From Peduovirus P24B2, in the sequence record NC_049387.1: DNA of 32,118 nucleotides; one strand, written 5' to 3'. Both the position numbers and the translations under genes were made by a program. The notes beneath the pieces are model-generated. The model had not been told where the DNA came from and did no database searches. It was given only the letters and a program-made list of their open reading frames with translations. This document shows, one piece after another, positions 8,493-31,979 of the stretch; position 1 is the stretch's first letter; every line of letters begins with the position of its first letter.

Positions 8493-8922
8493 TGCCGTCA
8501 CGGTGCTGAAAACCAGTCCCGAGATGCTGCGGATATTCGTGGATAACGGGAGTATTGCCTCCACGCTGGCGACGTCGCTGTCATTCGAAAAGCGTTACAC
8601 GCTCAATGTCATTGTGACCGACTTTACCGGTGATTTTGACCTGCTCATCGTGCCGGTGCTGGCGTGGCTGCGGGAAAATCAGCCCGACATCATGACCACC
8701 GACGAAGGCCAGAAAAAGGGCTTCACGTTTTATGCGGACATCAACAATGACAGCAGCTTTGATATCAGCATCAGCCTGATGCTGACCGAGCGCACGCTGG
8801 TCAGTGAGGTGGACGGCGCACTGCATGTGAAGAATATCCCGGAACCTCCGCCGCCGGAGCCGGTCATCCGCCCGATGGAGCTTTATATCAATGGCGAACT
8901 GGTGAGCAAGTGGGATGAATGA
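8455..8922 (+). CDS. R: tail completion protein R
   Basis: 155-aa ORF; size and order match P2 gpR. Confidence 0.85.
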   Translation: MLKPDSLRRALTDAVTVLKTSPEMLRIFVDNGSIASTLATSLSFEKRYTLNVIVTDFTGDFDLLIVPVLAWLRENQPDIMTTDEGQKKGFTFYADINNDSSFDISISLMLTERTLVSEVDGALHVKNIPEPPPPEPVIRPMELYINGELVSKWDE

Positions 8923-9367
8923 GTTTAAGCGTTTTGAAGACCGGCTGACCGGGCTGATTGAATCACTGTCACCATCAGGGCGTCGGCGACTGAGCACCGA
9001 ACTGGCGAAACATCTGCGGCAGAGTCAGCAGCGCCGGGTGATGGCACAGAAAGCCCCGGACGGCACACCCTACGCACCACGCCAGCAGCAGAGCGCCAGA
9101 AAAAAGACCGGTCGCGTTAAGCGAAAAATGTTTGCGAAACTTATTACCAGTCGTTTTTTGCATATCCGTGCCAGCCCGGAGCAGGCATCAATGGAATTTT
9201 ACGGCGGGAAGTCGCCGAAAATCGCCAGTGTGCATCAGTTTGGTCTGTCGGAAGAAAACCGGAAAGACGGTAAGAAAATTGATTATCCGGCGCGTCCTCT
9301 GCTCGGCTTTACCGGTGAGGATGTGCAGATGATTGAAGAGATTATCCTGGCTCACCTCGACCGTTAG
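8915..9367 (+). CDS. S: tail completion protein S
   Basis: 150-aa ORF overlapping the R 3' end; P2 gpS equivalent. Confidence 0.85.
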   Translation: MNEFKRFEDRLTGLIESLSPSGRRRLSTELAKHLRQSQQRRVMAQKAPDGTPYAPRQQQSARKKTGRVKRKMFAKLITSRFLHIRASPEQASMEFYGGKSPKIASVHQFGLSEENRKDGKKIDYPARPLLGFTGEDVQMIEEIILAHLDR

Positions 9368-9433
9368 TTGTGCCATTCCTGACACCTCATCGTCACATTG
9401 CCGCCGGTATGACCCGGCGGCATCCTTCCCGTT

Positions 9434-10069
9434 ATGAACACTCTCGCAAATATTCAGGAACTCGCGCGCGCACTGCGCAACATGATCCGCACCGGCATTA
9501 TCGTCGAAACCGACCTTAACGCCGGTCGCTGCCGTGTGCAGACCGGCGGCATGTGCACCGACTGGCTTCAGTGGCTGACCCATCGCGCAGGACGTTCGCA
9601 CACATGGTGGGCACCTTCCGTGGGGGAACAGGTGCTGATTCTGGCCGTGGGTGGTGAACTCGACACGGCGTTCGTTCTGCCGGGGATTTATTCCGGTGAT
9701 AACCCCGCGCCGTCTGCGTCGGCGGATGCCCTGCATATCCGTTTCCCTGACGGGGCGGTGATTGAGTATGAACCCGAAACCAGTGCACTCACGGTAAGCG
9801 GAATTAAAACGGCCAGCGTGACGGCTTCTGATTCTGTTACTGCCACCGTGCCGGTGGTCATGGTGAAAGCGTCAACCCGCATCACCCTGGACACACCGGA
9901 GGTGGTCTGCACCAACAGGCTGATTACCGGCACGCTGGAAGTGCAGAAGGGTGGAACGATGCACGGCAACATTGAACATACCGGTGGTGAACTCTCATCA
10001 AACGGTAAGGTACTGCATACCCATAAACACCCCGGCGACAGTGGCGGCACAACAGGGGGACCTCTATGA
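9434..10069 (+). CDS. V: baseplate spike/assembly protein V
   Basis: 211-aa ORF; P2 gpV size and position, followed by overlapping W. Confidence 0.88.
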   Translation: MNTLANIQELARALRNMIRTGIIVETDLNAGRCRVQTGGMCTDWLQWLTHRAGRSHTWWAPSVGEQVLILAVGGELDTAFVLPGIYSGDNPAPSASADALHIRFPDGAVIEYEPETSALTVSGIKTASVTASDSVTATVPVVMVKASTRITLDTPEVVCTNRLITGTLEVQKGGTMHGNIEHTGGELSSNGKVLHTHKHPGDSGGTTGGPL

Positions 10070-11859: not shown

Positions 11860-14595
11860 ATGAGCACGAAATTTAAAACCGTTATCACTACTGCCGGAGC
11901 CGCAAAGCTGGCAGCCGCCACTGTCCCCGGCGGGAAAAAAGTAAACCTGTCTGCAATGGCCGTGGGTGATGGTAATGGCAAATTGCCGGTGCCGGATGCC
12001 GGTCAGACGAAACTGGTGCATGAGGTCTGGCGTCACGCTCTGAATAAAGTCAGCGTGGATAACAAGAATAAAAACTATATCGTGGCTGAACTGGTTGTAC
12101 CGCCCGAAGTGGGCGGCTTCTGGATGCGTGAGCTTGGTCTGTATGACGATGCCGGAACACTGATTGCGGTATCCAACATGGCAGAAAGCTATAAACCAGA
12201 ACTGGCTGAAGGCTCCGGACGTGCGCAGACCTGCCGCATGGTTATTATTCTCAGCAATGTGGCATCCGTTGAGCTGAGTATTGATGCCAGCACAGTGATG
12301 GCGACGCAGGATTACGTCGATGACAAAATCGCAGAGCATGAGCAGTCCCGCCGCCATCCTGACGCCACGCTGACAGAAAAAGGTTTTACTCAGTTAAGCA
12401 GTGCAACAAACAGCACCAGTGAAGAGCTGGCGGCAACGCCAAAAGCGGTCAAGGCAGCAAATGACAACGCAAATTCACGTCTGGCGAAAAATCAGAACGG
12501 TGCAGATATCCAGGATAAATCAGCTTTTCTGGACAATATTGGTGTTACCAGCCTGACGTTTATGAAAAACAACGGCGAAATGCCGGTTGATGCTGATCTC
12601 AATACATTTGGTCCAGTTAAGGCTTATGTGGGTGTCTGGTATAAATCCACATCCTCCAACGCAACACTGGAGAAAAATTTCCCTGAAGACGGTGCAGTCG
12701 GTGTTCTTGAGGTATTCAATGGCGGTAATTTTTCCGGAATGCAGCGTTATACCACCAGAACTGGCAATGTTTATATGCGTAATCTTTCTGGCACCTGGAA
12801 TGGCTCAGACGGTCCGTGGAGCTACTGGCGTCAGATTCAGTCTGCAACACGCCCCCTGAGCACAACTATTGACCTGAACACGCTAGGAGGCGCAGAGCAT
12901 CTTGGTTTATGGCGAAACAGTAGTGGCTCTATCGCTTCATTTGACCGCAACTATCCGGAAGAAGGAAGTTATGGTCAGGGATTCCTTGAAGTTCTTGAGG
13001 GTGGTGGGTACTCACGCACGCAACGCTATACGACCCGCCGTGGGAACGTATATGTTCGCTGCCTTTCTGCTACATGGAATGCACAGAACCCACAGTGGGA
13101 GCCGTGGTCAAGAGTAGGCCATCAGTCAGAATGTCGTTATTACGAAGGTGATTTGAATGATCTGACTTCGCCAGGCATTTACAGCGTTACAGGGAAGGCG
13201 TCAAACGGTCCAATGCAGGATACCGCTGGAGCGACACTGCTTGGAATACTGGAAGTAATCAGGCGTTTTGATGGTGTATCTGTCTGGCAGCGTTACACAA
13301 CCACAGGGAAATCAGAAACCACACAGGGGCGCACTTTTGAGCGCGTCTATGCCGGGAGCAAATGGACCGAATGGCGAGAAGTATATAACTCCTTTTCGTT
13401 GCCTCTGAATCTGGGCATCGGTGGCGCAGTGGCAAAACTATCCAGTCTGGACTGGCAGAGCTACGATTTTGTGCCGGGCAGTCTGATAGCCGTTAGGCTG
13501 GATAATATGACCAATATTCCCGACGGTATGGACTGGGGCGTCATTGATGGCAACCTGATAAACATCGCAGTTGGTCCGAGTGATGATTCCGGTACGGGGC
13601 GCTCAATGCATGTATGGCGCAGCACTGTAAGTAAAGCGAACTACCGATTTTTTATGGTGCGTATTTCAGGAAATCCGGGAAGCCGCACGATCACAGCAAG
13701 ACGAGTACCAATCATTGACGAAGCCCAGACATGGGGCGCGAAACAGACATTCAGTGCTGGCCTTTCTGGTGAACTGTCCGGCAATGCGGCGACAGCAACA
13801 AAGCTGAAAACAGCCCGTAAAATTAATAACGTTTCGTTTGATGGAACATCAGATATTAACCTGACGCCGAAAAATATTGGTGCATTTGCTTCAGGAAAAA
13901 CAGGAGACACCGTTGCGAATGATAAAGCCGTTGGGTGGAACTGGAGTAGCGGAGCCTATAACGCAACTACTGGTGGGGCATCAACGTTAATTCTTCATTT
14001 TAATATCGGTGAAGGAAGTTGTCCCGCCGCCCAGTTCCGCGTTAATTATAAGAACGGCGGTATTTTTTATCGTTCTGCTCGTGACGGTTACGGATTCGAG
14101 GCTGACTGGTCTGAGTTTTATACCACAACGCGAAAACCTACAGCGGGAGATGTCGGTGCACTGCCGTTATCTGGTGGTCAATTGAATGGTGCTCTGGGTA
14201 TAGGAACATCCAGTGCTCTTGGCGGTAATTCGATTGTTTTGGGTGATAATGACACGGGCTTTAAACAAAATGGTGATGGTAATCTGGATGTTTATGCTAA
14301 TAGCGTCCATATTATGCGCTTTGTCTCGGGAAGTATTCAAAGTAATAAAACCATAAATATTACGGGGCGTGTTAATCCCTCGGATTACGGTAACTTTGAT
14401 TCCCGCTATGTGAGAGATGTCAGACTTGGCACACGTGTTGTTCAGACCATGCAAAAAGGCGTGATGTATGAAAAATCAGGCCATGTAATCACGGGGCTTG
14501 GTATTGTCGGTGAAGTCGATGGTGATGACCCCGCAGTATTCAGACCAATACAAAAATACATCAATGGCACATGGTATAACGTTGCGCAGGTGTAA
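11860..14595 (+). CDS. H: tail fiber protein (mosaic, extended)
   Basis: 911-aa ORF, longer than the 669 aa I recall for P2 gpH; N-terminus is the virion-attachment region expected for P2 H; central and C-terminal parts are lower GC and contain three tandem repeats plus the motif ATATKLKTARKINNVSFDGTSDINLTPKNIGAF that I associate with conserved tail-fibre segments. Confidence 0.85.
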   Translation: MSTKFKTVITTAGAAKLAAATVPGGKKVNLSAMAVGDGNGKLPVPDAGQTKLVHEVWRHALNKVSVDNKNKNYIVAELVVPPEVGGFWMRELGLYDDAGTLIAVSNMAESYKPELAEGSGRAQTCRMVIILSNVASVELSIDASTVMATQDYVDDKIAEHEQSRRHPDATLTEKGFTQLSSATNSTSEELAATPKAVKAANDNANSRLAKNQNGADIQDKSAFLDNIGVTSLTFMKNNGEMPVDADLNTFGPVKAYVGVWYKSTSSNATLEKNFPEDGAVGVLEVFNGGNFSGMQRYTTRTGNVYMRNLSGTWNGSDGPWSYWRQIQSATRPLSTTIDLNTLGGAEHLGLWRNSSGSIASFDRNYPEEGSYGQGFLEVLEGGGYSRTQRYTTRRGNVYVRCLSATWNAQNPQWEPWSRVGHQSECRYYEGDLNDLTSPGIYSVTGKASNGPMQDTAGATLLGILEVIRRFDGVSVWQRYTTTGKSETTQGRTFERVYAGSKWTEWREVYNSFSLPLNLGIGGAVAKLSSLDWQSYDFVPGSLIAVRLDNMTNIPDGMDWGVIDGNLINIAVGPSDDSGTGRSMHVWRSTVSKANYRFFMVRISGNPGSRTITARRVPIIDEAQTWGAKQTFSAGLSGELSGNAATATKLKTARKINNVSFDGTSDINLTPKNIGAFASGKTGDTVANDKAVGWNWSSGAYNATTGGASTLILHFNIGEGSCPAAQFRVNYKNGGIFYRSARDGYGFEADWSEFYTTTRKPTAGDVGALPLSGGQLNGALGIGTSSALGGNSIVLGDNDTGFKQNGDGNLDVYANSVHIMRFVSGSIQSNKTINITGRVNPSDYGNFDSRYVRDVRLGTRVVQTMQKGVMYEKSGHVITGLGIVGEVDGDDPAVFRPIQKYINGTWYNVAQV
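12589..13390 (+). repeat. three tandem ~93-aa (~280-nt) protein repeats inside tail fiber H
   Basis: Repeat units start near 12589, 12865 and 13147; each has DLN(T/D)... then G-x-LEV... then QRYTT(R/T)... then W-x-x-W (compare GVLEVFNGGNFSGMQRYTTRTGNVYMRNLSGTW, GFLEVLEGGGYSRTQRYTTRRGNVYVRCLSATW, GILEVIRRFDGVSVWQRYTTTGKSE). Confidence 0.65.
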
Positions 14596-14598
14596 ATT

Positions 14599-15126
14599 AT
14601 GCAGCATTTAAAAAACATTAAGTCAGGTAATCCAAAAACAAAAGAACAATATCAGCTAACAAAGAATTTTGATGTTATCTGGTTATGGTCCGAAGACGGA
14701 AAAAACTGGTATGAGGAAGTAAGTAATTTTCAGCCAGACACAATAAAAATTGTTTACGACGAGAATAATATTATTGTCGCCATCACCAGAGATGCTTCAA
14801 CGCTTCATCCTGAAGGTTTTAGCGTTGTCGAGGTTCCTGATATTACCGCTAACCGACGTGCTGATGACTCAGGTAAATGGATGTTTAAGGATGGTGCCGT
14901 GATTAAGCGGATTTATACGGCAGACGAACAGCAGCAACTGGCAGAATCACAAAAGGCAACTTTACTTTCCGAAGCTGAATCCGTGATTTTGCCGCTGGAG
15001 CGCGCGGTCAGACTGAACATGGCAACAGATGAGGAGCGTAGCCGACTGGATGCATGGGAGCGTTACAGCGTTCTGGTCAGTCGTGTGGATCCTGCAAATC
15101 CTGAATGGCCGGAAATGCCGCAATAA
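14599..15126 (+). CDS. G: tail fiber assembly chaperone
   Basis: 175-aa ORF immediately downstream of H; position and size as P2 gpG; lower GC like the H distal part, consistent with co-transfer of fibre tip and its chaperone. Confidence 0.75.
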
Positions 15127-15347: not shown

Positions 15348-15941
15348 ATGTTTACTAAGCGACGATTAAAAAATATTAACTGGGAGGCAAGTTCAGTGAT
15401 TCTTGCTATGGTTCTCTTTGTTGGAAATATATTTTATACAAATCATCGTGATGATATAAGCATGGAGGCTGAGAGGGACAGTATCAGAACAATGTTTGCA
15501 TATGAAATCGCTAATAACCATCGCGCTCTCACTTTTCTTGATAAAACGAGATATATTGGCTTTGACGAAAATTCGGAGCATTTTGTTGGCGAGCCTTTTG
15601 CCATTAATGTCAAATCATTAGGGGGGCCTCGCTTACAGATTGCATTAAACCAGAGTGATAAAGTGTTTAAATCCTACTTCAGCGAATTAAGTAAGCTTGA
15701 TAAAGAGGATGTTACTCTTCTTATGGACTATTACCATGAGCAAAGCATCCTGCTGGAGCGTGTAAAATCTACGTTACAGAAGATGAAAAGTGGTAATGAT
15801 ATTAAAGTTGATATTGATGGTTACTTATTAGAAGAACACTTCATGAATGAGCTTAATCTTTCTAATATTTTGCTTAAACGCTATAGCCATTTGTTGTCAC
15901 AACACGCCAAAGAACATAAAACAAAAGATTTACATAATTGA
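15348..15941 (+). CDS. hypothetical membrane-anchored protein (moron at the Z/fun position)
   Basis: 197-aa ORF with SD-like AAGGTG 5 nt upstream of ATG; single N-terminal hydrophobic helix (SSVILAMVLFVGNIFY); strongly AT-rich compared with the flanking G and FI genes; no catalytic motif recognised. Confidence 0.6.
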   Translation: MFTKRRLKNINWEASSVILAMVLFVGNIFYTNHRDDISMEAERDSIRTMFAYEIANNHRALTFLDKTRYIGFDENSEHFVGEPFAINVKSLGGPRLQIALNQSDKVFKSYFSELSKLDKEDVTLLMDYYHEQSILLERVKSTLQKMKSGNDIKVDIDGYLLEEHFMNELNLSNILLKRYSHLLSQHAKEHKTKDLHN

Positions 15942-29077: not shown

Positions 29078-30125
29078 ATGGCGGTAAAAGTTGTTGATCT
29101 TTTTTGCGGTGCTGGCGGTTTAACGCACGGCTTACATTTGGCCGGATTGGACGTTGTCGCAGGCATTGATTTAGAAGGTGAGTGTCGTGTTGCATACGAA
29201 AGCAATAATGATGCACTTTTTATTGAAAAAGATATATCTCTGGTGACAAAAGATGAAATCGAAAATCTTTTTGAAGGGGCAAGTGTTAAAGTATTGGCCG
29301 GATGTGCACCTTGTCAGCCATTTTCTAAATATACTCAGGGAAAAGATAAAAAAAATGATAAAAAGTGGCCGTTATTATATGAGTTTGAACGTTTAATAAA
29401 AGACACGAAACCAGAAATAGTTACAATGGAAAACGTTCCTGATGTGACAAAACATTCTGTCTATGATGATTTTTATAATACCTTAATAGCATTGGGTTAT
29501 TATGTTTGGGCAAATAAGATTGAATGTGTAGATTTTGAGGTTCCGCAAAACAGAGTGAGGCATGTATTACTCGCATCTAAATTTGCGCCGATTTCTCTGA
29601 TGAAACCACAAACATCGGTAAAGCTGACAGTTAGGGATTGCATTGGTAATTTACCTTCGATTGAAGCGGGACAAGCAGATCCAAAAGACCCTCTCCATAA
29701 GGCGAGTAGATTGAGTGAAATTAATCTCAAACGTATTCTACATTCAAAACCGGGGGGGGACATGGAGGGATTGGCCTGCTGAATTAATCGCTTCATGTCA
29801 TGCCAAGAAAAGTGGGCAGGGATATGCCAGTGTTTATGGTCGTATGTCTTGGGATAAACCGAGTCCAACGATAACTACACTTTGTTATGGTTTTGGTAAT
29901 GGACGTTTTGGTCATCCCGAGCAGCATCGTGCAATCTCACTTAGGGAAGCAGCATTACTTCAAACGTTTCCTGTTACATATTCATTTACCCAACCGGGCG
30001 AGCCGATCAAAATGAAAAATGTCGGGCGTATGATAGGTAATGCTGTTCCTGTAAACTTAGGTAAAGCGATTGGTCTTTCAATAGTACATCATTTGAAAGA
30101 GTTTCACCCCGCCGCTCTTAAATAA
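29078..30125 (+). pseudogene. DNA (cytosine-5) methyltransferase, Dcm-like, split by a frameshift in a G8 tract
   Basis: ORF 29078..29782 carries motif I (FCGAGG), motif IV (GCAPCQPFS), motif VI (ENV) and motif VIII (QNRVRH); ORF 29715..30125, in another frame, carries RMSWDKPSPTIT and motif X (GNAVPV); the frames meet at GGGGGGGG 29752-29759; SD GGAG upstream of the ATG; AT-rich. Confidence 0.8.
29752..29759 (+). repeat. homopolymeric G8 tract at the methyltransferase frameshift site
   Basis: cgggggggga read directly; loss of one G would fuse the two methyltransferase frames into a product of about 348 aa. Confidence 0.9.
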
Positions 30126-30823
30126 GCCTGAGTATCAAGATAAGTTTGTATATTTTCAAGGATGCAGTTGAGATAATGAAAAACTTCATCCTTCATTTCT
30201 GTTAGTGTATCAATAGATGTATCTCTGCCTTTGTTTCTAAATGATTCAGAACCATGAGCAAGGTCGTTTCTGGCCTTTTTTATTGGAAGTAAATTGCAAC
30301 CATTTCGCGTTATTTCTGAATCTGTATCTGCTGAGAAGCCATATTTTTCAGCGACTTCTCTAATTTTTCTAGCATCAACATTTCCAGAAAATAACGGATT
30401 TTTATTTGATTGGATAAGTTTTTTGTGAGCGTTTAGCCACTCTTTAAATATAACTTTTGCAATGTTCCCTTGTGAGAAATCTATTTTCCCATTTGGTGAT
30501 TGTAAACTATGAAATGCTACTCTTGTAAGGTTTTCATTTACAGTGTCTGCACATAATGATTCATTAGACATTAAAACATTATGAATGTCTTCTATTGCAT
30601 TGGAAATGGTTGCTTCAATGAGATTGTACAATATAATAAATGCATTAGCCTTTAAAATATGAGTCATGTCAATATCAATGGGTTGTTGTATAGGCGCATC
30701 GCTTGTATTCTCTTTATAGACTAGAGATGGTTTTTTGTTTATTAGTAACTGAATGAATGAGAAGTATTCATTAATATCTTGCATTCTTTCTTGGAAAAGA
30801 ATTTTACTTGTCATCTCCTCCAT
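30104..30823 (-). CDS. hypothetical protein, putative HEPN-like nuclease
   Basis: 239-aa ORF 10 bp downstream of the DUF262 gene on the same strand; C-terminal KKARNDLAHGSESF fits the R-x4-H(G) HEPN motif; very AT-rich; 3' end overlaps the methyltransferase 3' end by 22 nt (convergent). Confidence 0.5.
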   Translation of the reverse strand: MEEMTSKILFQERMQDINEYFSFIQLLINKKPSLVYKENTSDAPIQQPIDIDMTHILKANAFIILYNLIEATISNAIEDIHNVLMSNESLCADTVNENLTRVAFHSLQSPNGKIDFSQGNIAKVIFKEWLNAHKKLIQSNKNPLFSGNVDARKIREVAEKYGFSADTDSEITRNGCNLLPIKKARNDLAHGSESFRNKGRDTSIDTLTEMKDEVFHYLNCILENIQTYLDTQAYLRAAG

Positions 30824-30833
30824 TTACTTGGCC

Positions 30834-31979
30834 TCACTCCATATTTTCATCTTCATTTTCATCTTCGTCGACAATATTTTCTGGAATGTCTTTCCCAAGC
30901 AACTTGTTTTTTACATATTCAATGCGTGCTTTAACTTTGGGTTTAGAGTTGCTGGCATCTGAACGTGTGTGCGTGATAAACTCTTTCGAGTTGATCCAGT
31001 CATCAATATTTTTAGGAACTAAATTGGGTTCTTCCTCTAGTGCTAATGTTGCACCGACGGCAAGAGCTTCGAAACGAATCCTAGGAACAGTGGTGGCGTT
31101 TTTCACCTTTCTGAAACCATTTGGGAAATGTGTATTAATGAATTGGCACATTTTATGAAATTTTTCCGCCAGCATAGCTGCGTTTTCATCTGTATATTCG
31201 GCATTTTTACGTTTTAAATAGGTTGTAAGAAATTCATCAACGCTTTTTCTGAAATCAAGATATTCTTCAGTGTAGGCAAAGTAGCGTAGTGCCAATTCTG
31301 GATATTCAGAGCGACGTTTTCTTGCATCTCCCAAAGGACAGATGCTATGAAATAGAGGATCTTCGGAAATTTCATTGATAAATGCAAGGAATGGCCCATC
31401 ATGGCTACCTTGCCGTTGTTCCATTGTTGTTAGTTTTTTTCCGCCAGTATTCAGACGGTCAAAAATTTCCCTTCTTGTCTCTTCGTCACAATGTTCTGTA
31501 AGTTCAATCATTCGAATAGTTTTTCTATCAAAACGTAGGCGACGGGGAGTACTGAAATCAGAATATTTAAAACCATTGGCTGTGACTAATTTCTGCAGGC
31601 CTTCAAGAGTTAGTTTGTTATTGGTAAATTGGTGTAGGGTTCTTATTCGTTGGCTACCGTCAACAATTTCAAGTCTACCTTCATTTTCACCTGAACCAAT
31701 ATCGGCAACGAATATGTAAGGTATAGGAAGATTTAAAAGCAGAGATTCAATGAAACGGGATTTTTGCTTGTTGTTCCAGATAAACTCCCTTTGGTAGTCA
31801 GGTATAAAAAGCTCTGCCTCATCTTCTTCAAGACCATTCTGAAATTTGTCCACAATAACACTTATCGGGAACTCACGTATTTCATGGTCAGTGATTTTTT
31901 GCATTTCAACTATGCTTTGATCTAAAAGCTCCTTTTCTTCTTTAGTTTTTGGGGTATGTTCTGCTTTTTTTCTCGCCAT
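30834..31979 (-). CDS. DUF262 (ParB/sulfiredoxin-like, GmrSD N-terminal-type) domain protein
   Basis: 381-aa ORF with IPDYQREFIW and EIVDGSQRIRTL, matching the DUF262 hallmarks ([IL]PxFQRxYxW and DGQQR); no HNH/DUF1524-like C-terminal motif seen; acidic C-terminal tail DEDENEDENME; SD AGGA upstream; AT-rich. Confidence 0.7.
   Translation of the reverse strand: MARKKAEHTPKTKEEKELLDQSIVEMQKITDHEIREFPISVIVDKFQNGLEEDEAELFIPDYQREFIWNNKQKSRFIESLLLNLPIPYIFVADIGSGENEGRLEIVDGSQRIRTLHQFTNNKLTLEGLQKLVTANGFKYSDFSTPRRLRFDRKTIRMIELTEHCDEETRREIFDRLNTGGKKLTTMEQRQGSHDGPFLAFINEISEDPLFHSICPLGDARKRRSEYPELALRYFAYTEEYLDFRKSVDEFLTTYLKRKNAEYTDENAAMLAEKFHKMCQFINTHFPNGFRKVKNATTVPRIRFEALAVGATLALEEEPNLVPKNIDDWINSKEFITHTRSDASNSKPKVKARIEYVKNKLLGKDIPENIVDEDENEDENME

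Follow-up and report, generated by a model that had tools for sequence, protein, structure and literature searches.

The characterised fibre closest to the one analysed here is that of Yersinia phage L-413C. According to Garcia et al. 2008, as summarised in PMC7460101, 207 N-terminal and 137 C-terminal amino acids of L-413C gpH are P2-like, with a mosaic middle derived from other enterobacterial fibres. On Y. pestis, both L-413C and P2 vir1 depend on the terminal GlcNAc in the outer core of the LPS (PMC3182234), and L-413C-type fibres grafted onto the R2 pyocin lead to killing of Y. pestis (Williams et al. 2008, as cited in PMC11464564). The T4 distal half-fibre has ten globular domains by EM (PMC3004832).

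We analyzed the tail fibre gene H of Peduovirus P24B2 (NC_049387.1) in a window of 32,118 nucleotides, where the gene order is V-W-J-I-H-G, as in P2. H is matched by PHROG 381, 'tail fiber protein' (E = 1.5e-204). The features of H and of the adjoining gene are as follows:

11860..14595, + strand: gene H, tail fibre protein of 911 aa, stop codon included (from the ORF list).
11860..12480, + strand: P2-type N-terminal baseplate-attachment part, aa 1-207 (Pfam and P2 H alignment).
12535..13923, + strand: block common to T-even gp37, aa 226-688, with the three predicted knobs and the fourth domain inside it (T6 gp37 alignment).
12589..12867, + strand: predicted knob unit 1 (R1), aa 244-336 (unit profile 245-336, 119 bits).
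12868..13149, + strand: predicted knob unit 2 (R2), aa 337-430 (unit profile 337-427, 121 bits).
13150..13434, + strand: predicted knob unit 3 (R3), aa 431 to about 521/525 (unit profile 431-521, 86 bits), the most diverged of the three.
13435..13734, + strand: fourth domain, aa 526-625, conserved with T-even gp37.
13747..13878, + strand: conserved 'GNAATATKLKTARKI..FDG..DI.LT' linker (the GNAATATKL linker), aa 630-673 (T6 gp37 alignment).
13873..14163, + strand: Mu S'-like / gp37_C domain, aa 672-768 (PDB and Pfam).
14167..14595, + strand: tip region at the C-terminus, aa 770-911, resembling P2 H and Mu S but without the 56-residue P2 segment.
14599..15126, + strand: gene G, tail fibre assembly chaperone of 175 aa (Pfam Caudo_TAP, PF02413, E = 3.3e-35).

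H belongs to the P2 gpH / tail-collar type: Pfam places PF12571 at aa 1-151 (E = 3.3e-57) followed by the fibre repeat PF03406 at aa 170-211 (E = 4.6e-21), the genes stand in the order I-H-G, and the chaperone is a Caudo_TAP protein. No Pfam model covers aa 212-678, while gp37_C matches aa 679-754 (E = 4.5e-5); an NCBIfam search returned no match for H, and a PDB sequence search nothing matching the repeats. Residues 672-768 correspond to residues 321-417 of Mu S' (PDB 8ju3; E = 3.6e-48), and the tip also matches Mu S (5yvq residues 426-503) and S16 gp37 (6f45). In Mu, S and S' are switched by DNA inversion; the ORF list around H and G contains no second, inverted fibre/chaperone gene pair. 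The GC fraction is 0.56–0.62 in the upstream baseplate genes, 0.51–0.53 at the H N-terminus, 0.44–0.52 in the repeat region, and 0.36–0.48 across the final third of H and gene G. The expectation that GC would fall after the N-terminal part is thus partly correct for the repeats; the real drop is that of the final third of H and of G.

P2 gpH (NP_046775, NC_001895) has 669 aa, which makes H of P24B2 242 aa longer, and it aligns solely to H residues 1-207 (84% identity, P2 residues 1-207) and 770-911 (51%, P2 residues 472-669), identity being about 79% over the last 73 residues of H. The middle of P2 H is an alanine/threonine-rich shaft different from the middle of P24B2 H, and the unit profile scores -2.3 bits on P2 H, i.e. 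it finds no knob units there. The distal tip of P2 H contains 56 extra residues that are absent from P24B2 H. Since P2 H can be aligned at the two ends alone, H is mosaic relative to P2. The original prediction had anticipated a protein about 240 aa longer than P2 gpH, with a P2-like first part and repeats that P2 H does not share, and all of this is borne out; its divergent tip holds as regards the missing 56-residue segment, but not as regards the last 73 residues.

This mosaic organization is not new, because L-413C gpH has the same one, as already published (Garcia et al. 2008, summarised in PMC7460101); in H, likewise, a P2-like N-terminal ~207 aa and C-terminal ~140 aa flank a non-P2 middle. 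L-413C gpH (NP_839867, 913 aa) is 82% identical overall to P24B2 H and displays the same architecture, its three knobs being arranged in the same order. The two proteins share about 99–100% identity over residues 1-240 and 620-911, whereas the block at aa 241-620 represents a different allele (51, 67 and 46% identity for knobs 1, 2 and 3, and 73% for domain 4) in which synonymous divergence is saturated; nucleotide identity to L-413C is back at 98–100% from nt ~13741. Gene G shares 94% identity with its P2 counterpart and 95% with that of L-413C, and is essentially P2's own chaperone.

Residues 244-525 of H form three tandem units of ~93 residues, with 22 invariant columns in the three-unit alignment and the motifs D-L-N, G..LEV, QRYTT and W..W. 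Number, length and motif pattern had been predicted, and the alignment columns match the pattern exactly; the interval assigned to the repeats, 12589-13390 (aa 244-510), has the correct start but ends too early, as the third unit runs ~30–45 nt further. Whole-protein self-BLAST of H yields the identity match alone, and significance was instead evaluated by segment-against-segment BLAST and Smith-Waterman shuffle tests. By these measures, R1 and R2 are 47% identical over 83 aa (E = 8e-28; z = 33.5, 0/1000 shuffles), R1 and R3 are 33% identical (E = 8e-5; z = 5.2, score reached by 0/1000 shuffles), and R2 and R3 are 26% identical (z = 3.2, score reached by 7/1000 shuffles). At the DNA level, TRF reports no tandem array in H, and none with a period near 280; the sole recurring DNA is a 17-nt stretch coding for QRYTT, at spacings of 279 and 267 nt and 76–88% identity. 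These results rule out a recent DNA-level tandem duplication of the slippage type; the triplication is therefore old and has been maintained at the protein level. That the triplication is ancient is also indicated by the order knob1-knob2-knob3, which is constant in 10/10 L-413C-type H proteins compared and kept in most other homologues examined, including T6 and JK23 gp37. The fourth domain (aa 526-625) and gp37_C (aa 679-754) were considered as candidate extra knobs, for which the unit profile and Smith-Waterman shuffles give no support in sequence; Smith-Waterman scores of the fourth domain against the knob units do not exceed the shuffle mean, and the unit profile has no match in it. The fourth domain has pLDDT values below 60 in both AF2 models, and the AF2 model of aa 515-775 (mean pLDDT 39) is too low in confidence to use.

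The fold of the repeats was evaluated from an AF2 prediction for aa 236-625, which was based on a 25-sequence alignment and represents a single chain rather than a trimer. The pLDDT is 80–90 over all three units (about 83–90 in unit 1), and in the DSSP assignment of each unit DLN is followed by a short helix, and the main strands number about five. The modelled units fit the description of a pyocin-type knob (~80–95 residues, an antiparallel beta-sheet of 5–6 strands, and variable loops). A Foldseek search of the PDB with the three-unit model retrieves the R1 pyocin fibre 6cl5 with E = 3e-6 and a probability of 1.0, along with the RBP towers of staphylococcal phages (5efv, 6v8i and 9euf), and the modelled units are significantly similar in structure to the solved Knob1/Knob2 of R1/R2 pyocins. 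Together with the pyocin fibres, the retrieved set covers every knob relative named by Buth et al. 2018, i.e. 5EFV, 5M9F and T4 gp34, deposited as 5NXF (PMC6116203). Taken as a whole, the three-domain model gives low TM-scores (0.2–0.36), because the relative domain orientation is arbitrary. Based on the model, each ~93-residue unit is predicted to be a small antiparallel beta-sheet 'knob' like those of the R1/R2 pyocin fibres, so that structure prediction, proposed as a check on the repeats, supports them. Proteins 98–99% identical to the repeat region of H carry the NCBI name 'pyocin knob domain-containing protein'. The family is large: at E ≤ 1e-3, a three-unit profile matches 637 cluster representatives, with 1–6 copies per protein and in many different tail-fibre contexts, and 73 viral models match at E ≤ 1e-3. 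Most gp37 genes of Tequatrovirus contain the module, as do 367 of 5,426 complete E. coli genomes.

A counterpart of the middle of H is found in T-even gp37. Residues 226-688 of H are 52% identical to T6 gp37 residues 105-562 over 465 aa (E = 7e-167), and at least 80% of the knob region is held by 223 phage records, mostly Tequatrovirus gp37 at 53–60%. In T6 gp37 (YP_010067397, 994 aa), three knobs at residues 124-402 and the following domain are collinear with H, as expected of a T-even gp37 shaft module. Horizontal acquisition of the middle of H, as originally predicted, is supported by this homology and by the match of aa 672-768 to Mu S'. The GNAATATKL linker is common to both proteins (66% identity to T6 gp37 residues 63-106), but precedes the knobs in gp37 and follows them in H; from its sequence and position, it is a likely recombination joint. 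The N-terminus of T6 gp37, which attaches to gp36, and its C-terminal half, with the tip that binds the gp38 adhesin, are unlike H. The gp37 deletions from PP01 experimental evolution were considered as functional evidence and dropped, bp 1980-2650 being outside the knob module.

To describe the allelic variation, ten otherwise near-identical L-413C-type H genes were compared. The mean pairwise amino acid identity is 79, 83 and 74% in knobs 1, 2 and 3, versus 98–99% in aa 1-207 and 626-770, and dS is about 0.3–1.7 or saturated in the knobs, versus 0.00–0.16 in the flanks. The knob dN/dS of 0.09–0.18 rules out positive selection inside the knobs; variability is slightly higher in predicted loops (mean entropy 1.01 versus 0.82 bits, p = 0.024), which is a weak effect. 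Nucleotide identity shifts in blocks at about nt 12535, 13150–13250, 13430 and 13740, and knob 1 of P24B2 is 66% identical to T-even gp37 versus 51% to L-413C knob 1. This pattern points to cassette exchange of old alleles: saturated synonymous divergence, purifying selection and breakpoints between the knobs suggest that whole knobs are swapped by recombination, from a pool common to T-even phages.

Based on these observations, we consider it likely that H is an L-413C-type mosaic fibre of a P2-like E. coli phage or prophage, in which three knob beads lie in a block shared with T-even phages and are exchanged as cassettes. The fibre consists, in order, of a P2-type N-terminal baseplate adaptor, a gp37-shared block of ~460 residues, the GNAATATKL linker, a Mu S'-like domain, and a P2/Mu S-like tip. 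In the trimer, one unit from each of the three chains would combine to form one globular bead on the shaft, resembling the 'beads' that EM shows in the distal half-fibre of T4. Packing of the sheets around the three-fold axis would help the chains register and fold, and the variable loops would point outward. The beads, which account for ~240 additional residues compared with P2 H, would chiefly set the length and stiffness of the fibre. The C-terminal tip would make the primary contact with the receptor, to which the knob loops may add a secondary and weaker one with sugars. The strong allelic diversity of the knobs fits poorly with a purely structural role.

A more direct part in recognition, which we regard as a lesser possibility, is that the knobs are putative lateral carbohydrate-binding modules (for LPS outer core or O-antigen) that set host range together with the tip, and that exchange of a single knob retunes specificity. 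Polymorphism is highest in the knobs of fibres that are otherwise 98–100% identical, the knobs are exchanged one by one, and L-413C H and P24B2 H differ almost solely in the knob block. The pyocins offer a parallel, in that R-pyocin fibres are most diverse in Knob2 and in the C-terminal domain; Buth et al. suggest a pair of binding sites separated by about 100 Å, and also note knob-like domains among the fibres and tailspikes that bind saccharides (PMC6116203). Nevertheless, the low dN/dS indicates no positive selection within alleles, the loop bias of the variation is slight, and L-413C, with knobs, and P2 vir1, without them, need the same GlcNAc on Y. pestis; moreover, recombination with a divergent gene pool could give the same pattern without selection. 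A bolder proposal, which we consider speculative, is that the knobs are independent lateral recognition modules, for glycans or immune sensors, exchanged singly between P2-like prophages and virulent T-even phages, and would constitute a combinatorial host-range or immune-evasion system separate from the tip.

The original prediction had instead proposed that a receptor-binding module, comprising the tip and a matching G and including the repeats, was exchanged horizontally, resulting in a receptor unlike that of P2. The middle 560 residues of H are indeed foreign to P2 H, the 56-residue P2 segment is missing from the tip, and the killing of Y. pestis by R2 pyocin with L-413C-type fibres, reported by Williams et al. 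2008 as cited in PMC11464564, would agree with such an exchange. However, the 94% identity of G to P2 G speaks against a chaperone that was replaced along with the tip, and the final 73 residues of H remain close to P2 H. The repeats are located in the shaft, 250–650 residues from the C-terminus, and are neither adjacent to the receptor-binding tip nor part of it. The critical receptor residue on Y. pestis is common to L-413C and P2 vir1 (PMC3182234), which argues against a different receptor. Taken together, we find this proposal improbable.

Knob diversity might also reflect escape from bacterial immune systems that sense the fibre knobs, rather than receptor choice, which we judge to be very unlikely. 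To our knowledge, no defence system senses P2-type or T-even fibres at knob domains. A 2026 preprint reports that side-tail-fibre knob variation in Pseudomonas Migulavirinae phages alters sensitivity to type II Thoeris, and that spontaneous Thoeris escapers map to Knob2 (bioRxiv 10.64898/2026.06.04.730250). The H knobs show the same allele-level diversity under purifying selection, but the phages and host of the preprint differ, and the knobs are only distantly related. Finally, although R2/R3 similarity is weak and no DNA-level repeat is detectable, a chance or low-complexity resemblance without structural meaning is refuted by the R1/R2 and R1/R3 statistics, the 22 invariant columns, the unit order kept across the ten H proteins of the L-413C type and in most of the further homologues examined, two T-even gp37 proteins included, the breadth of 637 protein clusters, and a confident fold prediction repeated three times.

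The repeat finding is real but ordinary: P24B2 H is one more allele of a well-populated, already described fibre type. Outside a ~1.2-kb block (nt ~12535–13740), P24B2 H and L-413C H are nearly the same, so that they constitute natural allele pairs in which the knob cassette is the sole variable, and thereby provide a simple test of the role of shaft knobs in host range, adsorption or immune sensing. That role concerns R-pyocins, P2-like phages and T-even phages alike, and bears on the engineering of retargeted pyocins and phages.

Compared with the known systems that contain such domains, the knobs of H are ~18–22% identical to those of the Pseudomonas R1/R2 pyocin fibres (PDB 6CL5, 6CL6 and 6CU2; Buth et al. 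2018, Salazar et al. 2019), where two knobs are present instead of three and the C-terminus is a lectin foot rather than a Mu S/P2-like domain. The 'tower' of the Staphylococcus RBPs (phi11 gp45 5EFV, 80alpha 6V8I, phi812 9EUF and K gp144 5M9F) has tandem knob-like domains at 11–16% identity, in a context unlike that of H, since these are baseplate proteins of Gram-positive siphophages and myophages. The Mu tail fibre S / S' (PDB 5YVQ, 8JU3), in contrast to H, is by sequence without the three-knob block.

The tail fibre gene H (11860-14595, plus strand) encodes a protein of 911 residues, in which nucleotides 12589-13390, or residues 244-510, had been predicted to carry three consecutive, homologous units of about 93 residues. 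Segment-wise BLAST delimits three such units, here called knobs 1-3 (R1-R3):

H aa 244-336, R1
H aa 337-430, R2
H aa 431 to ~521/525, R3

The units lie within the predicted range, except that R3 extends slightly past its end, and their homology is highly significant: R1 and R2 are 47% identical across 83 residues (E=8e-28), R1 and R3 33% identical (E=8e-5), and R2 and R3 26% identical, with Smith-Waterman z-scores of 33.5, 5.2 and 3.2, respectively, against a background of 1000 shuffles. The predicted pattern DLN / G-x-LEV / QRYTT / W-x-x-W is present among the 22 invariant columns of the three-unit alignment (D-L-N, G..LEV, QRYTT and W..W included). In the DNA itself the units form no tandem repeat: all that recurs is a 17-nt stretch coding for QRYTT, spaced 279 and 267 nt apart, so the triplication is old.

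An AlphaFold2 model of H residues 236-625, based on an alignment of 25 sequences, has pLDDT values of 80-90 throughout the three units and predicts for each a short helix after DLN, followed by about five strands. In a Foldseek search of the PDB, the model matches the R1 pyocin fibre 6cl5 (E=3e-6, probability 1.0) as well as the tandem "tower" domains found in receptor-binding proteins of staphylococcal phages. The matched structures include pyocin fibres and every Knob1/Knob2 relative listed by Buth et al. 2018 (PMC6116203).

Structural relatives of the H knob model, with scores
6eu4, Acinetobacter phage tailspike, 10.7
9euf, phi812 receptor-binding protein, 10.2
6cu2, R2 pyocin fibre, 9.5
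6cl6, R2 pyocin fibre, 8.8
5efv, phi11 host-recognition device, 8.3
9b45, Pa193 tail fibre, 7.8
5m9f, phage K gp144, 7.1
5nxh, T4 gp34, 6.9
8ju3, Mu S' fibre, 6.3

Searched against 1.84 billion proteins, a profile of the three units retrieves 637 cluster representatives (E<=1e-3), each with between one and six copies of the unit; in 50 of these, the flanking domains include P2-type N-termini, intramolecular chaperone domains, collagen repeats, Gp34_trimer and gp37_C. In a viral structure library, 73 models match (E<=1e-3), and nearly all the named ones are tail-fibre or other tail proteins. The T4 distal half-fibre displays about ten globular beads in EM (PMC3004832), and three of these could plausibly be the gp37 units at residues 124-402.

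As predicted, H is a mosaic relative to P2. P2 gpH (NC_001895, 669 aa) aligns solely to residues 1-207 (84%) and 770-911 (51%), and the unit profile finds no repeats in it (-2.3 bits). Horizontal acquisition of the middle is borne out by the T6 gp37-like block among the following parts:

H aa 1-151, PF12571 (Pfam)
H aa 170-211, PF03406 (Pfam)
H aa 226-688, 52% identical to T6 gp37 residues 105-562
H aa 630-673, "GNAATATKLKTARKI..FDG" linker, located upstream of the knobs in T6 gp37 (residues 63-106)
H aa 672-768, near-identical to Mu S' in PDB 8ju3 (E=3.6e-48)
H aa 785-858, resembling the S16 gp37 needle
H aa 836-910, resembling Mu S in 5yvq

The tip was expected to be divergent and the chaperone G to have been exchanged to match it. 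The tip is indeed altered, lacking a 56-residue segment of P2 H while the rest aligns, but its last 73 residues are P2's own (~79% identity), and so is G (94%). The exchange thus touches the shaft and some of the distal tip, leaving the chaperone and the extreme C-terminus unaffected. Nor do the repeats belong to the receptor-binding module; they are shaft knobs instead.

We compared ten mosaic H genes of the type found in Yersinia phage L-413C, segment by segment.

Mean pairwise amino-acid identity among ten L-413C-type H genes
H aa 1-207, 98%
H aa 208-243, 88%
Knob 1, 79%
Knob 2, 83%
Knob 3, 74%
H aa 526-625, 92%
H aa 626-770, 99%
H aa 771-911, 88%

Relative to the window, synonymous divergence amounts to 0.00-0.16 for residues 1-207 and 626-770, and ~0.3-1.7 or saturated for the knobs, where dN/dS is 0.09-0.18; knob diversity reflects imported old alleles rather than fast local evolution. 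The exchange pattern varies by knob: in phage 569R9, identity is 91-93% for knobs 1-2 and 77% for knob 3, and in YpM_50 it is 76-80% and 95%, respectively. Nucleotide identity changes stepwise near nt 12535, 13150-13250, 13430 and 13740. All ten proteins have the knobs in the order 1-2-3, as do most of the other homologues that were compared, two T-even gp37 proteins among them. Taken together, our analyses establish knob domain identity, tandem arrangement, mosaic joints and cassette exchange in H, with knob-by-knob exchange a modest, testable lead.

Two further regions of H are variable. Directly upstream of knob 1, a short patch at 12445-12535 (H aa ~196-243) is 73-84% identical to YpM_22, P2SIDE7, P2_2H1 and phage 899, and 97-100% to other phages; it marks a further recombination joint. 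The fibre tip (14167-14595, H aa 770-911), too, has two or more alleles among H genes of the knob type: in P2_4E6b, P2SIDE7 and P2_2H1 (H of 919 aa) this segment is only 76-77% identical to that of the window, with a higher dN/dS of 0.42-0.45.

We propose that one unit from each of three H chains would form a trimeric bead in the shaft, and that the beads may lengthen and stiffen the fibre and aid register of the chains, while primary LPS contact would fall to the C-terminal tip folded with G. This model is consistent with the binding of Y. pestis cells by L-413C gpH (PMC7460101) and with the need for the terminal GlcNAc of the LPS outer core shared by L-413C and the knob-less P2 vir1 (PMC3182234). 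Two other readings would account for knob diversity better than a pure scaffold. The knobs might bind glycans as secondary sites, a role proposed for pyocin Knob2 (PMC6116203), or their diversity might stem from evading immune sensors that recognise knob domains, a link reported for the side-fibre knobs of Pseudomonas phages and type II Thoeris (2026 preprint, bioRxiv 10.64898/2026.06.04.730250). Knob variability is only weakly biased to predicted loops.

Gene order around H follows P2 (S, V, W, J, I, H, G, then FI), and the whole window is collinear with P2-like phages, its first 25 kb being 96-97% identical to E. coli prophages and Peduovirus isolates. Further loci are as follows:

15348-15941, plus strand, 197-aa ORF between G and FI (GC 0.33-0.39)
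29078-29782, plus strand, 234-aa C5 cytosine DNA methylase
30104-31979, minus strand, gene pair at the position of P2 old/tin

The 197-aa ORF stands where P2 has its Z/fun moron and may serve in lysogenic conversion or defence. Its match is to PHROG 3829, a family of unknown function (E=6e-137); Pfam, NCBIfam and PADLOC give no significant match, only NCBIfam noise below threshold (E=0.02). In this slot the E. coli E1 prophage carries the same gene, and phage P2_4E6b an ORF of equal length. The methylase covers positions 2-164 of 324 of its Pfam profile and may be short or truncated. The gene pair encodes a 381-aa GmrSD_N/DUF262 protein (PADLOC NsnA 4.9e-55, PD-T4-2_A 9e-35) and a 239-aa HEPN protein (PF18737, 7.6e-18), and from these matches looks like a PD-T4-2-like anti-phage module.

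The H architecture, its domain family and near-identical alleles are already known from the literature and databases. At least 80% of the H-G segment is carried by 25 phage records; the knob block occurs in 367 of 5,426 complete E. coli genomes, in one of them (strain E1) at 99.9% identity, and proteins 98-99% identical to the knob region are labelled "pyocin knob domain-containing protein" at NCBI. The window has no orf30 (9367-9434) between S (8915-9367) and V (9434-10069), where P2 carries this 786-nt gene on the reverse strand; L-413C likewise lacks it. According to the summary of Garcia et al. 2008 in PMC7460101, L-413C gpH is P2-like in its N-terminal 207 and C-terminal 137 residues, with a middle pieced together from other enterobacterial fibres in mosaic fashion. 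The 913-aa L-413C protein is 82% identical overall to the window H and essentially identical at residues 1-240 and 620-911. Knob 1 of the window is nearer to T-even gp37 (66% to JK23, 62% to T6) than to knob 1 of L-413C (51%).
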